Shown piece after piece: positions 52,550 to 55,797 of a stretch of 64,000 nucleotides of DNA (within the stretch, counting starts at the first letter, position 1; each line of letters begins with the position of its first letter). Position numbers and translations under genes: made by a program. The notes under the pieces were generated by a model, which did not search any database, had not been told where the DNA came from, and saw only the letters and a list, made by a program, of their open reading frames with translations. This stretch comes from Candidatus Omnitrophota bacterium. Lineage in GTDB: Bacteria > Ratteibacteria > UBA8468 > B48-G9 > JAFGKM01. Location of the stretch: positions 9,584 to 73,583 of the forward strand of contig JAMWCJ010000001.1 of NCBI GenBank assembly GCA_023818645.1, in the 5' to 3' direction.

Positions 52550-54427
52550 ATGGAAAGAGAACTTATAATTGTTGAATCACCAACGAAGGCAAAAACAATC
52601 AGTGGTATACTTGGAAATAAATATTTAGTATTTCCTACTATGGGGCATATAAGAGACCTTCCAGAAAACGAATTTGGAATTAATATTGATGATAATTTTT
52701 CGCCTAAATATGTTATTATCCCTGGTAAAAAGAAAATTGTAGAAAAATTAAAAAACCTTGCTAAAAATTCTACCAATATATATCTTGCAACTGATGAAGA
52801 CCGAGAAGGTGAAGCAATTGCGTGGCATGTTGTCTGTTTAATCGATAAAAAAATTGAAGAAGCAAAGAGAGTGACTTTTCACGAAATTGTCCCAGAGGCA
52901 ATAAAAAAAGCATTTCTAAATCCAAGACAGATATCTATTGAACTTGTTAACGCCCAACAAGCAAGAAGAATTCTTGATAGAATAGTTGGCTATAAGATAA
53001 GTCCTATACTTGGTAAACATCTTGAAATTGGTTTATCCGCAGGGAGAGTTCAATCTGTGGCTTTAAAACTTATTGTAGAAAGAGAAAAAGAAATTGAAAA
53101 TTTTGTTCCCGAGATTTACTTTGTTATAAGATGCGAAGTTGAAAAAAATGGAGAAAAGATAATCTTTAATCTGATCAAAATTGAAGAAATTTCTGTTGGA
53201 AAAGAAAGAATAAAAGACGAGCAAAAAGTTGATGAAATTATAGAAAAACTAAAACAGGGGAAATTGATTATTAGTGAAAAAGAAGAAATGATAAAGAAGT
53301 TAAGTTCGGTCCCACCTTTTATAACAAGCACATTACAACAGGAAGCAATAAATATTTTAAATTTCTCTTCTACAAAAACAATGTTTATTGCTCAGCAACT
53401 TTATGAAGGGATTAAGATTGAAGATAAAAATATTGGACTTATTACATATATGAGAACTGATTCGCCTTCTGTAGCAAAATCAGCACAAAATCAGGCATTA
53501 AAATTCATTAAAGAAAACTTTGGAGAAAACTATTTACCAGAAAAACCAAATATTTATTACTCAAAATCAAAAGTTTCCCAGGAAGCACACGAAGCAATAA
53601 GACCAACTTCTGTATATAGAACACCAGAAAAAATAAAAAAGTATTTAACCCAGGACCAATTTAAACTTTATGAATTAATATGGAGAAGATTCCTTGCAAG
53701 TCAAATGGCCCCAGCAATAATAAAAAATATCAAAGTTTTTGCGTTCAATGATATTTATTTATTTGAAACAGAAAGAGATTTTATCGTTTTTGATGGTTTT
53801 TTAAGATTATGGCCACTTAAAATTGAAAAAGGCAATCCAATTATAGAAAAATTTGAGAAAGGCGAGGAATTAAATGTTATAAAGTATTTAAAGGAAAAGA
53901 AACAAACGCAACCACCTCCAAGATATACTGAAAGTACATTGATTAAAACTCTTGAAAAATATGGAATAGGAAGACCATCTACTTATGCTCCCACAATTTC
54001 AACTTTATATGAAAGAAATTATGTTAAAAGAGAAAAAAAGTTTCTTGTTCCACTGAAAATGGGAAAAATTGTTTATGAAATATTGAACAAATTTTTTCCT
54101 GAAATAATAGAAATAAATTTCACAGCCAAAATGGAAGAAGACCTTGACAAAATAGCAAACGGAGAAAAAAATTGGATAGAGGTGCTCAAAGAATTTTATA
54201 ATAGTTTCAAATTATCTCTTGAAAAAGCAAATGAAATAATAAACAGAGATGTTCTAAACAAAATTATAATTGGAGACAAAAAGTGCCCGCTCTGTAATGG
54301 AGAACTAACTATAATAAAAGGCAAATACGGAATTTTTATTGGTTGTTCTAATTATCCCAATTGTAAATATAAAGAAAGGATAAGAGAAAATGTTAATAAT
54401 TCCAGCAATAGATCTAAAAAAAGGTGA
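52550..54427 (+). CDS. topA: DNA topoisomerase I
   Basis: TOPRIM motifs (IIVESPTKAKTI, ATDEDREGEAIAWH). Catalytic Tyr region. C-terminal Zn ribbon CPLCNG...CSNYPNCKY. Confidence 0.95.
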   Translation: MERELIIVESPTKAKTISGILGNKYLVFPTMGHIRDLPENEFGINIDDNFSPKYVIIPGKKKIVEKLKNLAKNSTNIYLATDEDREGEAIAWHVVCLIDKKIEEAKRVTFHEIVPEAIKKAFLNPRQISIELVNAQQARRILDRIVGYKISPILGKHLEIGLSAGRVQSVALKLIVEREKEIENFVPEIYFVIRCEVEKNGEKIIFNLIKIEEISVGKERIKDEQKVDEIIEKLKQGKLIISEKEEMIKKLSSVPPFITSTLQQEAINILNFSSTKTMFIAQQLYEGIKIEDKNIGLITYMRTDSPSVAKSAQNQALKFIKENFGENYLPEKPNIYYSKSKVSQEAHEAIRPTSVYRTPEKIKKYLTQDQFKLYELIWRRFLASQMAPAIIKNIKVFAFNDIYLFETERDFIVFDGFLRLWPLKIEKGNPIIEKFEKGEELNVIKYLKEKKQTQPPPRYTESTLIKTLEKYGIGRPSTYAPTISTLYERNYVKREKKFLVPLKMGKIVYEILNKFFPEIIEINFTAKMEEDLDKIANGEKNWIEVLKEFYNSFKLSLEKANEIINRDVLNKIIIGDKKCPLCNGELTIIKGKYGIFIGCSNYPNCKYKERIRENVNNSSNRSKKR

Positions 54428-55250
54428 AATAGTTCGACTTTATAAAGGGAGATTTGATAAAATTTCTTATTATGACTATGAGATCGAAAATCTGGTAAGA
54501 GATTATTTGAAAGCAGGTGTTAAAAGAATTCATATTGTTTTTCTATATGGTGCCAAAACAGGTGAAATTGAAAAAGAAGAAATAAATAAGATTAAAAATA
54601 TAATTGAAATTAAAAAAGTTAGCAATAGAGATGACTGCGAAATTCAAATTGGTGGAGGGATAAGAAGAAAACAGCAAATAGAAAAATTTTTAAATTTAGG
54701 AATTAATTATATAATTATAGGAACTGCGTTTTTAATTCCTCTGGCTTTAAGTGAAGGATATAGTATTCAAGATATAAAATTTTTTTATCAAAAAAGCGGC
54801 AAGAACTTAGATATAGAAAAAGAGTTTCCTGAATTTGAACTGATTGATTGGCTTGAACCTGAAATTAAAGAAAAAATTATAATATCTGTTGATTACTTCA
54901 AAGATGAAATCACTTTGAGCGGATGGGAAGTAACTTTACCTTTGAAACCCTCCTATGTAATAAAAAAATTTATAGAAAGGGGATTTAAAAGGTTTCTTAT
55001 AACAAATATTGAAAGAGATGGAACTCTTGAGGGAATTGATTTTAAAAATATCAGTAAGATTATGAAAGAAATTGGTAAGTTTAGAGAAGATATAAAAGAA
55101 ATAATAGTTGCTGGAGGCATTTCAAAAGAAAATGATATACTTTTACTAAATTCCTTACCATATAGTCCAACAGGAGTTATAATAGGAAAAGCCTTATATC
55201 AAAAAAAATTGGATTTAAAAAATGTTATTGAAAAATATCAGAAAAATTAG
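54390..55250 (+). CDS. HisA/HisF-family (beta/alpha)8-barrel protein, HisA-like, with an internal insertion
   Basis: N-terminus MLIIPAIDLKKGEIVRLYKG matches HisA IPAIDL..G..VRL. C-terminal phosphate-binding VAGGISKENDI and GVIIGKALY. About 40 aa longer than canonical HisA. No other his genes are nearby. Confidence 0.6.
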   Translation: MLIIPAIDLKKGEIVRLYKGRFDKISYYDYEIENLVRDYLKAGVKRIHIVFLYGAKTGEIEKEEINKIKNIIEIKKVSNRDDCEIQIGGGIRRKQQIEKFLNLGINYIIIGTAFLIPLALSEGYSIQDIKFFYQKSGKNLDIEKEFPEFELIDWLEPEIKEKIIISVDYFKDEITLSGWEVTLPLKPSYVIKKFIERGFKRFLITNIERDGTLEGIDFKNISKIMKEIGKFREDIKEIIVAGGISKENDILLLNSLPYSPTGVIIGKALYQKKLDLKNVIEKYQKN

Positions 55251-55797
55251 TTTGGTATTTTTCTTTCTCTGTAATTTTTCTTATGTCCAAATTCAAAATA
55301 AGATAACTGTTACTCCACTATTAAATGAAAAATATTCAAGTAATGTTTTAAGTTTTATAAAAAAATCTGAAAAATCTATATATATAATTATGTTTGAAAC
55401 AGGTTATTACCCTGAGTATGCTGAAAGTATATCAAATCAAATATTGAGAGAATTAATAAATGCCTATAAAAGAAATGTTAAAATTGAAGTTATACTTGAT
55501 TTATCAAAATATCCTAATGTGAGAGAAAAAAATTTTAAAACTGCAAAATTTCTTGCAGAAAATGGTATAAATGTTTATTTTGATAATGAAAACAAAACAA
55601 CACATTCAAAACTTTTAATAATTGATGAGAAGTATGTTTTTATTGGAAGTCACAATTGGAATTATTATTCTCTTGAAAAAAATAATGAAACAAGTGTATT
55701 GATTGAATCAGAAGAAATTGCCAAGATATTTATTGATTATTTTAAAGAAATAAAGAAGAAAGAATGTAAAATATTTATTTCACCAGTAAAAAATTAA
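55222..55797 (+). CDS. Secreted single-HKD phospholipase-D-superfamily protein (Nuc-like endonuclease type)
   Basis: Signal peptide plus one HxKxxxxD motif, [20 protein letters not shown]. 191 aa. Confidence 0.7.

Follow-up and report, generated by a model that had tools for sequence, protein, structure and literature searches.

Do three overlapping genes for functionally unrelated proteins form a module, or are they simply packed tightly together? The question is raised by a locus in a Candidatus Omnitrophota bacterium, which is placed by GTDB in the Ratteibacteria. Public records of the Ratteibacteria, an uncultured candidate phylum, often carry the label Omnitrophica. The whole stretch of DNA analysed, referred to here as the window, is 64,000 nucleotides (64 kb) long. 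In it, topA is followed by a gene for a HisA-like barrel protein and a gene for a phospholipase D (PLD)-superfamily protein, each starting inside the gene before it. The original prediction took the three genes to be translationally coupled and saw in them an undescribed module, in which a repurposed HisA barrel is linked to a topoisomerase and a secreted nuclease. To our knowledge, the string itself has not been described before. The explanation favoured here, with moderate confidence, is a plainer one: a compact Ratteibacteria genome in which housekeeping genes of unrelated function stand in a tight, conserved string. The HisA-like protein, HisA-L (long-form HisA), would be the HisA of the lineage, and the PLD protein would be exported and Nuc-like.

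Locus layout and overlapping reading frames

The open reading frames of the three genes were confirmed exactly, and all three lie on the plus strand (Table 1). Judged by its domains (Toprim, Topoisom_bac and Zn_ribbon_Top1, with one C-terminal zinc ribbon), topA encodes an ordinary topoisomerase I. The divergent genes lysA and argH adjoin topA in much of the 286-aa subclade of HisA-L relatives (subclade 1). The genes around the PLD gene in the window are topA, HisA-L and purA.

Table 1. Features of the topA–HisA-L–PLD locus (positions within the window)
Feature	Position	Strand	Details
lysA	49852-51129	-	Divergent from topA; context only
argH	51054-52478	-	Divergent from topA; context only
topA, bacterial type IA DNA topoisomerase I, 625 aa	52550..54427	+	TIGR01051, 764.8 bits (cutoff 456)
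topA–HisA-L overlap, 38 nt	54390..54427	+	topA 3' end / HisA-L 5' end; from the sequence
HisA-L, 286 aa	54390..55250	+	PF00977, 1e-44
Codon 51 of HisA-L, TTT (Phe)	54540..54542	+	β2 Asp position of the HisA 'VDL' motif; Asp50 in S. enterica HisA numbering
β4-β5 linker of HisA-L, residues 113-162, with insertion of ~30 aa	54726..54875	+	50 aa; canonical HisA median 19
HisA-L–PLD overlap, 29 nt	55222-55250		HisA-L 3' end / PLD 5' end
Single-HKD PLD-superfamily protein, 191 aa, Nuc/NucT/Zucchini-like	55222..55797	+	PLDc_2, 9e-26
Predicted signal peptide or membrane anchor of PLD, residues 1-25	55222..55296	+	MLLKNIRK, hydrophobic stretch, SYV/Q
HKD motif of PLD, H128-x-K130-x4-D135-x6-G142-S143-x-N145	55603..55656	+	Invariant in 27 aligned homologues

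The last 12 codons of topA encode the N-terminus of HisA-L in another frame, and a Shine-Dalgarno-like AAGGA lies inside topA, 9 nt 5' of the HisA-L ATG. It had been conceded that the overlaps of 38 and 29 nt might disappear with alternative start codons. They are real; both downstream starts are backed by N-termini that are conserved in relatives. Residues M1-D8 of HisA-L vary little, if at all, among 113 aligned relatives and contain a catalytic Asp, so the start cannot move downstream; the topA stop is set by the sequence. For the PLD gene there is an alternative, as TTG 55252, one nucleotide past the HisA-L stop, could start it free of overlap, and overlaps are generally inflated by the calling of maximal ORFs. 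However, this start would lose the positively charged n-region of the predicted signal peptide, which is supplied by MLLKNI(K/R)K. In a protein alignment this N-terminus is kept in relatives, and ATG 55222 is therefore favoured. Relatives have the same kind of overlaps at other lengths. It is thus extremely improbable that the overlaps are annotation artefacts of choosing the longest ORF.

Gene packing in the window

Overlap is the default of this genome. The window is about 93% coding at 27% GC, and 21 of its 44 same-strand neighbour pairs overlap when maximal ORFs are taken, nine of them by at least 20 nt and five by at least 29 nt. Overlap had been read as a sign of a functional link; being so common, and of unconserved length among relatives, it does not serve as one. 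In relatives the topA stop and the HisA-L start overlap by 4, 23, 29, 38, 56 or 62 nt, and the HisA-L/PLD junction ranges from -29 to +33 nt. A consensus scan gave no terminator-like sites and 26 promoter-like sites, against 22.8±4 by chance; it is uninformative at 27% GC. The three genes probably form one tight, co-transcribed string. The proposed translational coupling of unrelated proteins survives to the extent that some coupling is probable; the overlaps are no sign that the proteins share a function. Mixed housekeeping operons offer a likeness. In the rpsU-dnaG-rpoD macromolecular synthesis operon, unrelated essential genes stay in the same order across long evolutionary distances, their junctions tight or overlapping, and the topA–HisA-L–PLD string can be likened to operons of this type.

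Gene order in related loci

Conservation of the string was measured only within Ratteibacteria-type contigs. The order topA→HisA-L→PLD is kept in 27/27 loci of the 286-aa subclade with contigs that reach both neighbours; these loci range from 27 to 49% GC, with protein identity down to 42%. Conservation in relatives, which the original prediction had proposed to check, thus extends across this subclade. The second subclade has HIT–MJ0043_C–LpxK upstream and IspF–gltX downstream of the HisA-L locus. Between the two deep subclades identity is only 34-41% and the upstream genes differ; both have the HisA-L→PLD pair, at 27-50% GC. This pair is more persistent than a random adjacency, which was counted against plain packing as the explanation. 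The locus can nevertheless do without the PLD gene, which is missing from the LpxK–HisA-L–IspF string in L124 and L127; in L125 and L126 it is not next after HisA-L. The supposed three-protein module does not stand up to this comparison, as PLD can be lost and topA is the neighbour in only one subclade, with LpxK in the other.

Identity of the HisA-like protein

HisA is ProFAR isomerase (EC 5.3.1.16), which catalyses step 4 of histidine biosynthesis. HisA-L had been assigned to the HisA family by an N-terminal IPAIDL motif and a C-terminal phosphate-binding GG, and the assignment holds. PF00977 matches in two stretches and passes at 153 bits (cutoff 23.6), and G242-G243 is conserved. The TIGR00007 score is 181 bits, under the curated equivalog cutoff of 228.95 (~229), because the match is split in two by an insertion. 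The name given by PGAP is only 'HisA/HisF-related TIM barrel protein'. Sequence matches in the PDB are HisA or PriA in 32/32 cases. A structure prediction had been suggested as a check, and the AF2 model is a confident (βα)8 or TIM barrel (pLDDT 93, pTM 0.92) that lies nearest to substrate-bound Salmonella HisA. Foldseek gave HisA or PriA for each of its top 38 matches in the PDB. Substrate-bound S. enterica HisA ranks first (5ABT, 5A5W; target-normalised TM 0.85), followed by T. maritima HisA and PriA, all before HisF.

Conserved residues of the HisA-L family include D8, H48, R92, T112, D168, W179, T205, D210, G242-G243 and G266. D8, D168 and D210 are invariant among 113 aligned sequences, and the substrate-stacking W179 is conserved along with R92, G111-T112, G242-G243 and G266-K267 of the phosphate sites. 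In S. enterica HisA (SeHisA), the catalytic or substrate-gripping residues are D176, W145, R83, S103 and D129, and D7 is the other residue reverted from the crystal variants (PMC9088769). In a phmmer alignment with 5AHE, D176/W145/R83/S103/D129/D7 correspond to D210/W179/R92/T112/D168/D8 of HisA-L, all of them invariant or almost so; at the Ser202 position the family varies. By this alignment, HisA-L keeps the known catalytic, stacking and phosphate-gripping residues of HisA, with the variable Ser202 position set apart, which does not bear out the notion of a repurposed barrel.

Further features are shared with the HisA proteins of S. enterica (5A5W/5AHE), T. maritima (1QO2) and C. jejuni (4GJ1). 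These include the (βα)8 barrel, IPAIDL with the β1 Asp, the first phosphate site (GGGIR + G(T/S)), the second phosphate site (GG + G(K/R)A), the β5 Asp, the stacking Trp of SGW, and T…RDGT with the β6-loop Asp. HisA-L differs from them by a helical β4-β5 segment of ~30 aa, by the change of the β2 'VDL' Asp to F/L/S/I, by its sub-cutoff TIGR00007 score, by having no his neighbour genes, and by a median identity of ~32%. PriA (2Y88, 3ZS4, 1VZW) has the same fold and catalytic Asp pair as HisA-L, but it scores below HisA against HisA-L, does not have the insertion and occurs only in Actinomycetota.

Insertion and divergence of the HisA-L family

An insertion of about 40 aa had been attributed to HisA-L. 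A single insertion is present, but the length of the β4-β5 linker puts it at ~30 aa. HisA-L is ~45 aa longer than canonical HisA overall, and the remainder is spread elsewhere in the protein. The insertion is modelled as short extra helices (residues 126-135, 142-145, 151-154 and 157-160; pLDDT 79-94). Y133 is invariant within it and K138, E145 and P147 are near-invariant, so the insertion is under selection for something. The other change is at the β2 Asp, which is present in 78/78 canonical HisA compared and in 0/101 long-form members; all of the latter (101/101) have F/L/S/I/V/M/T at this position. A literature search returned nothing usable on a role for the β2 Asp in HisA.

As judged from sequence comparison, the HisA-L family is narrow and Ratteibacteria-specific; it accounts for 3 of ~10,600 HisA/HisF-like representatives at 50% identity. 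Its median identity to canonical HisA is 32%, against 40% for canonical HisA among themselves. It had been asked where this copy would cluster: it is atypical and falls in its own Ratteibacteria-specific family, nearest to HisA. Three sequences are intermediate. In P0181 and P0182 the β2 Asp is kept although the linker is long (55-56 aa); in P0183 the linker measures 36 aa and Phe takes the place of the β2 Asp. A long linker combined with the canonical Asp, as in P0181 and P0182, indicates that the two changes came gradually and can occur separately. The graded series P0181-P0183 would fit stepwise divergence of one orthologous line.

Other his genes and metabolic context

The original observation that no hisF, hisH or hisB lies nearby is true of the window and of all the relatives. 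In tblastn searches, no his genes were found in the 64-kb window or within ±10 kb in ~45 related loci, which amounts to just a few percent of a genome. Other biosynthesis genes are found in the window and the related loci: lysA, argH, dapF-like and ilvD-like ORFs, leuA, aroA/B/E/K, pheA, purA and purL. The lineage is thus biosynthetically competent, which makes a scattered his pathway plausible, and the remaining his genes would lie elsewhere in the genome. No second canonical HisA from Ratteibacteria was seen among the matches listed, which were mostly without organism names. Genome contigs were also searched with a profile of the full-length family alignment, which holds motifs common to all HisA; the matches listed were only canonical HisA loci at ≤33% identity, with no HisA-L family members among them. 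A literature search on the metabolism of Ratteibacteria returned nothing usable. The most likely reading is that HisA-L serves this lineage as its only HisA, a ProFAR isomerase whose partner his genes are scattered; the original prediction had named just this as an outcome that would refute it.

One locus, L101, seemed to have hisH before a long-form HisA. It was treated as a chimera or recombinant, rejected as a his-operon link and not used as evidence. The contig is 1 kb long with a sharp breakpoint at ~nt 400-406; it is canonical-type 5' of the breakpoint (GC 0.42-0.50) and 92% identical to L098 3' of it (GC 0.34-0.37).

The PLD-family protein

The third protein had been described as a single-HKD protein of Nuc size with a signal peptide. 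The single HKD motif, the fold match to 1BYR and the predicted N-terminal signal-like helix all agree with this. Its sequence matches in the PDB are MitoPLD (4GGJ, 6e-8), Nuc (1BYR, 3e-7) and NucT (6EHI), and the top Foldseek match to its model is Nuc 1BYR (target-normalised TM 0.87, rmsd 2.1 Å). Among the NucT NCBIfam models the highest score is 46.6 bits, where the cutoff is 211, and the ClsB and DrmC models give similarly low scores. Relatives conserve the N-terminus and the h-region, which closes with (S/C)F(A/S)Q; a conserved lipobox Cys is absent. AF2 models a helix at residues 3-25 with low pLDDT (88.5 for the whole model). The pattern of this region predicts an export signal, which may be a cleaved signal or an uncleaved anchor.

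Nuc and NucT are exported single-HKD endonucleases with a domain of ~150 aa, and are active as homodimers. The PLD protein resembles Nuc of S. typhimurium plasmid pKM101 (1BYR) and NucT of H. pylori (6EHI) in size, in its one HKD motif and in its predicted N-terminal export signal. They are its best structural matches, yet identity is only ~20% and the NucT NCBIfam models stay far below their cutoffs. MitoPLD/Zucchini (PLD6; 4GGJ, 4GEL) is the best sequence match in the PDB and, like the PLD protein, carries a single HKD domain behind a hydrophobic N-terminal helix; unlike it, MitoPLD/Zucchini is eukaryotic and mitochondrial. Reports describe this membrane-anchored single-HKD protein as a cardiolipin hydrolase as well as a single-stranded RNA nuclease, so a choice between nuclease and phospholipase cannot be made from the fold by itself. 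The PLD protein is a putative nuclease that would most likely degrade extracellular or periplasmic nucleic acid. Its signal-like N-terminus, conserved in relatives, and its Nuc-like fold would place it outside the cytoplasm; HisA-L, which has no export signal, is placed inside it. A defence role was considered with PADLOC, which gave only weak DrmC-type PLD similarity. No DISARM partners (DrmA/DrmB/DrmMI-II or DrmD/E) were found in the window or related loci, and this reading was rejected for lack of partner genes.

Competing explanations

Could HisA-L and the exported PLD protein, with or without topA, be a true functional module after all? Such a module might scavenge nucleic acids, tied to nucleotide or histidine-purine metabolism, and be translationally coupled. 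It would account for a pair that stays adjacent in both deep subclades, whatever the upstream genes and over a wide range of GC, for the tight junctions, and for the full trio in every informative locus of subclade 1. The same comparison goes against it, as PLD is gone from an otherwise identical LpxK–HisA-L–IspF frame in two loci and does not follow HisA-L in two more, and subclade 2 has LpxK in place of topA. The predicted compartments differ, with a signal peptide on PLD and none on HisA-L; there is no defence signature past the weak DrmC-type similarity and no DISARM partner; and overlap is the habit of the genome. We consider such a module highly improbable.

A different possibility is neofunctionalisation, with HisA-L as a paralogue or descendant of HisA that has become an Amadori-type sugar-phosphate isomerase for a bis-phosphorylated ligand, with a non-ProFAR or additional substrate, as in PriA. 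There is precedent for the HisA lineage changing or broadening its substrate range in PriA, a dual-substrate HisA/TrpF isomerase (PMC9088769). The insertion and the replacement of the β2 Asp by a hydrophobic residue would reshape the rim of the active site; this Asp is lost in every long-form member, and the insertion has its own conserved residues. The sub-cutoff TIGR00007 score, the non-committal PGAP name, the lack of an adjacent his gene in any of the ~45 loci and the accelerated divergence point the same way. However, the known catalytic, stacking and phosphate-gripping residues are kept (Ser202 position aside), and a ligand resembling ProFAR is to be expected from the two intact phosphate sites. 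P0181 and P0182 indicate that the linker and the β2 Asp changed gradually and can do so separately, and no second canonical Ratteibacteria HisA appeared among the matches listed, most of which lack organism names. Neofunctionalisation seems rather unlikely. It is distinctly unlikely that a HisA-L re-tooled in Ratteibacteria, to act on another bis-phosphorylated ribosylamine or to take on a dual role like that of PriA, has long been co-inherited with the exported Nuc-like nuclease as a nucleotide-scavenging pair. On the favoured explanation, a string of unrelated housekeeping genes, topA would be an ordinary topoisomerase I, and HisA-L would be the ProFAR isomerase of the lineage with a helical β4-β5 insertion of ~30 residues, the other his genes lying elsewhere. 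PLD would be an exported Nuc-like single-HKD phosphodiesterase, in another compartment than HisA-L. The stop/start overlaps would be a product of genome compaction, with some translational coupling probable and no shared function indicated.

Biological meaning

As a topoisomerase–barrel–nuclease module, the locus has no significance; the evidence favours ordinary gene packing. In small, AT-rich, 93%-coding genomes, overlapping frames should not be equated with functional linkage. A modest interest remains in HisA-L as a HisA variant of a natural lineage with a structured β4-β5 insertion of ~30 residues. It replaces the β2 Asp held by every canonical HisA compared, while the known catalytic residues are kept. 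HisA, PriA and HisF are textbook models of (βα)8-barrel evolution; the HisA-L lineage could reveal the role of the β2 Asp and the limits to which the scaffold can be remodelled.

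Gene string and overlaps

With 27% GC the window is rich in AT, and coding sequence takes up about 93% of it. Three plus-strand ORFs, encoding a topoisomerase, a HisA-like protein (HisA-L) and a single-HKD protein of the PLD superfamily (PLD), appear in a mechanical ORF list exactly where the original prediction placed them, and their coordinates reproduce the overlaps of 38 nt (topA/HisA-like) and 29 nt (HisA-like/PLD). By its TIGR01051 score, the topA product is a genuine bacterial topoisomerase I.

Genes of the string, active-site residues of HisA-L with their counterparts in S. 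enterica HisA (SeHisA), and related loci without PLD
Feature	Position	Strand	SeHisA equivalent	Description
topA	52550-54427	+		625 aa; TIGR01051 764.8 bits (cutoff 456)
HisA-like ORF (HisA-L)	54390-55250	+		286 aa; Pfam His_biosynth 1e-44 in two stretches
PLD-like ORF	55222-55797	+		191 aa; PLDc_2 9e-26
HisA-L residue	D8		D7	catalytic Asp pair
HisA-L residue	D210		D176	catalytic Asp pair
HisA-L residue	D168		D129	β5 Asp
HisA-L residue	W179		W145	stacks on substrate
HisA-L residues	R92, T112		R83, S103	phosphate grippers
HisA-L residue	T205		T171	conserved active-site residue
HisA-L residues	G242-G243, G266-K267		none listed	second phosphate site
PLD-less member of second (275-aa) subclade, L124	10001-10873			LpxK–HisA-L–IspF kept
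PLD-less member of second (275-aa) subclade, L127	2151-3351			LpxK–HisA-L–IspF kept

Both overlaps survive a check of alternative starts. The HisA-like start is fixed and cannot be shifted downstream, because M1-D8 (MLIIPAID) varies little or not at all among 113 aligned relatives and holds the catalytic Asp; an AAGGA motif lies inside topA, 9 nt 5' of this start. A TTG at 55252 would abolish the overlap of PLD with the HisA-like ORF, but the ATG at 55222 is favoured because the N-terminus it provides, MLLKNI(K/R)K, is kept at the protein level among relatives and supplies the charged n-region of a putative signal peptide. With both starts supported by conserved N-termini, the overlaps are real. 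In this window they are nothing exceptional: 21 of 44 same-strand neighbour pairs overlap (maximal ORFs), nine of them by at least 20 nt and five by at least 29 nt; further cases are ORFs 3355-4368 and 4322-4726 (47 nt) and argH/lysA. The latter pair (49852-52478, minus strand) overlaps by 76 nt as maximal ORFs, and by 22 nt as called genes in relatives such as L001.

Overlap length is not conserved among relatives at either junction: topA and the HisA-like gene overlap by 4, 23, 29, 38, 56 or 62 nt, and the HisA-like/PLD junction ranges from -29 to +33 nt. The C-terminal tail of topA (…NVNNSSNRSKKR; also given as …ENVNNSSNRSKKR) appears conserved among relatives (window 54390-54427; L089-L122). 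Conservation of the tail in its own right was rejected; it is the conserved hisA N-terminus (MLIIPAIDLKK) in another frame, and the topA stop sits 4-62 nt into hisA at a point that differs by lineage. At the other end of the string, PLD and the convergent purA share their final 4 nt (55794-55797); their stop codons, one on each strand, overlap and leave no space for a terminator between the two genes. Elsewhere in the window, a solitary full-length 5S rRNA gene (29354-29469, minus strand; 98 bits) appears to be unlinked from an rRNA operon, and neither 16S nor 23S rRNA is found anywhere in the 64 kb.

Synteny

For the 286-aa subclade, to which the window gene belongs, 39 loci were collected by exact look-ups and by scanning metagenomes with the HisA-L insertion region as seed. 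The order topA→HisA-like→PLD is present in every one of the 27 loci whose contigs reach both neighbours (local BLAST); these loci range from 27 to 49% GC, with HisA-like identity down to 42%. On the short contigs L107 and L108 the Zn-ribbon tail of topA is recognisable in translations, and many loci carry lysA←argH upstream, divergent from topA. The second subclade (275 aa) has the frame HIT–MJ0043_C–LpxK→HisA-like→PLD→IspF→gltX (L006, L123, L128), so only one subclade has topA beside the HisA-like gene.

The HisA-like/PLD pair is old, since it is common to subclades only 34% and 41% identical. It is not obligate: two second-subclade loci run LpxK→HisA-like→IspF with no PLD anywhere in either locus, and in the relatives P0181 and P0182 (L125, L126) a ClpB-like gene comes next after the HisA-like gene. 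L127 has open junctions, with gaps of 265 and 107 nt in place of overlaps. In every one of these contexts the HisA-like gene stands in a row of housekeeping genes that are unrelated and tightly joined.

Structure and active site of HisA-L

HisA-L scores 181 bits against TIGR00007, under the cutoff of 229; its PDB sequence matches are all HisA or PriA. Structure prediction bears out the HisA-like barrel: the AlphaFold2 model (pLDDT 93.2, pTM 0.92; 113-sequence alignment) is a confident (βα)8 barrel with extra short helices between β4 and β5 (126-135, 142-145, 151-154 and 157-160). Foldseek ranks substrate-bound S. enterica HisA (5ABT, 5A5W) best, then T. maritima HisA and PriA; HisF comes further down. 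Residue equivalences were taken from a phmmer alignment and the roles of SeHisA residues from the literature (PMC9088769). D8, D210, D168, W179, R92, T112, T205, G242-G243 and G266-K267 are invariant or nearly so across the long-form family, i.e. relatives with the β4-β5 insertion. The position of SeHisA S202 is A, S or G in this family; Ala is found in 18% of canonical HisA.

Long-form (101) and canonical (78) sequences were compared column by column. The β4-β5 linker is 48-50 aa in the long form versus a median of 19 in canonical HisA; the predicted insertion is thus present, at about 30 aa rather than 40. Within it Y133 is invariant and D128, K138, F140, E145, P147 and E148 are near-invariant. 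The β2 Asp of the 'VDL' motif (SeHisA D50) is Asp in 78/78 canonical sequences and F, L, S, I, V, M or T in 101/101 long-form members; no statement of its role was found in the HisA literature searched. P0181 and P0182 have linkers of 55-56 aa and keep the β2 Asp, and in P0183 (264 aa) the linker measures 36 aa and Phe stands in place of the Asp. Insertion and Asp loss are therefore separable, and these three proteins are, by their sequences, intermediate forms. Median identity is 32% between long-form and canonical HisA and 40% among canonical sequences; the distance of the long form from canonical HisA is thus somewhat greater than the distances within the canonical set.

Distribution and other his genes

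A search of 5.8 billion proteins found some 105 clusters of relatives of 282-293 aa, with identity down to 42%; named ones are called 'HisA/HisF-related TIM barrel protein' and come from Candidatus Ratteibacteria or Omnitrophica MAGs. Ratteibacteria are often labelled Omnitrophica in public records (10.1101/2023.11.21.568195). Below this set the score falls sharply to canonical HisA (230-248 aa, 33-37% identity). An intermediate match, P0106 (275 aa, 34% identity), led to the second subclade, which has about 25 clusters labelled Ratteibacteria or Omnitrophota. A family-profile search of 1.84 billion 50%-identity representatives gave 10,630 matches at E ≤ 0.001. Among the matches listed, only P0061, P0180 and P0183 align in one stretch; every other splits into two, which implies that the insertion is absent, and the long form is thus a lineage-specific family of very narrow extent. 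L124 has 65% GC, and the long form thus spans genomes of 27% to 65% GC.

As predicted, hisF, hisH and hisB are absent nearby. Two complete his operons (from L062 and L077) were used as tblastn queries against 594 kb and loci added later; no other his gene turned up in the 64 kb of the window or in the 10 kb to either side in any related locus, stretches that amount to only a few percent of a genome. The same contigs encode lysA, argH, leuA, aroA/B/E/K, pheA, purA and purL, and dapF-like and ilvD-like ORFs. So many biosynthetic enzymes show that the organisms are not reduced auxotrophs, which makes it plausible that their his genes are scattered. One 1-kb metagenome contig, L101 (Ga0207433_10332895, nt 1-1005), seemingly joins hisH to a long-form gene. 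Its nt 1-405 hold a hisH 3' end and a canonical-type HisA N-half (LHIVDLDAA) at GC 0.42-0.50, and nt 406-1005 match the long-form gene of L098 at 92% identity, with GC 0.34-0.37. Given the sharp breakpoint and GC shift at about nt 400, it was set aside as chimeric, produced either during assembly or by natural recombination between canonical and long-form hisA.

The PLD protein

The prediction of a secreted single-HKD protein of Nuc size stands in its motif and fold. H128, K130, D135, G142, S143 and N145 of the HKD motif are invariant among 27 PLD homologues. The best PDB sequence matches are MitoPLD/Zucchini (6e-8), Nuc (3e-7) and NucT (6.5e-6); similarity to NucT, ClsB and DrmC models is weak and sub-threshold. 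The AlphaFold2 model (pLDDT 88.5) is closest to Nuc 1BYR (target-normalised TM 0.87, rmsd 2.1 Å), followed by NucT and Zucchini. Both nuclease and phospholipase activities have been assigned to Zucchini, and the modelled fold is compatible with either, without distinguishing between them. A DISARM or defence role was rejected: PADLOC gave weak DrmC-type matches only, and there are no DISARM partner genes beside PLD or in the related loci.

Residues 3-25 are modelled with low confidence as a hydrophobic helix, with K/R residues just before it; in relatives the helix ends …FAQ or …FSQ with no conserved Cys. Such a pattern would fit a Sec signal peptide or else an anchor at the N-terminus. LpxK in related genomes points to an outer membrane, and it is therefore reasonable to place PLD in the periplasm or at the surface, as for Nuc or NucT.

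Interpretation

We consider it probable that the locus is a conserved run of housekeeping genes, unrelated in function, in a genome that is compact. HisA-L would then serve as the ProFAR isomerase of this lineage, and PLD would act independently as an exported phosphodiesterase of the Nuc type; the overlaps would arise from genome compaction, perhaps with incidental translational coupling. The main rival, a changed or broadened function of HisA-L, would fit the absence of the β2 Asp, the conservation of the insertion and an equivalog score under the threshold, but is unlikely given that the residues for catalysis and phosphate binding are intact and that the intermediate forms are graded. Less likely still is a true functional module of HisA-L and PLD, with or without topA, such as was originally proposed for the three proteins: some members have lost PLD, others have a different gene in the place of topA, and HisA-L and PLD are predicted to reside in different compartments. 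The finding is thus mostly ordinary; what is new in it is limited to a structural variant of HisA that is uncharacterised and of narrow distribution.
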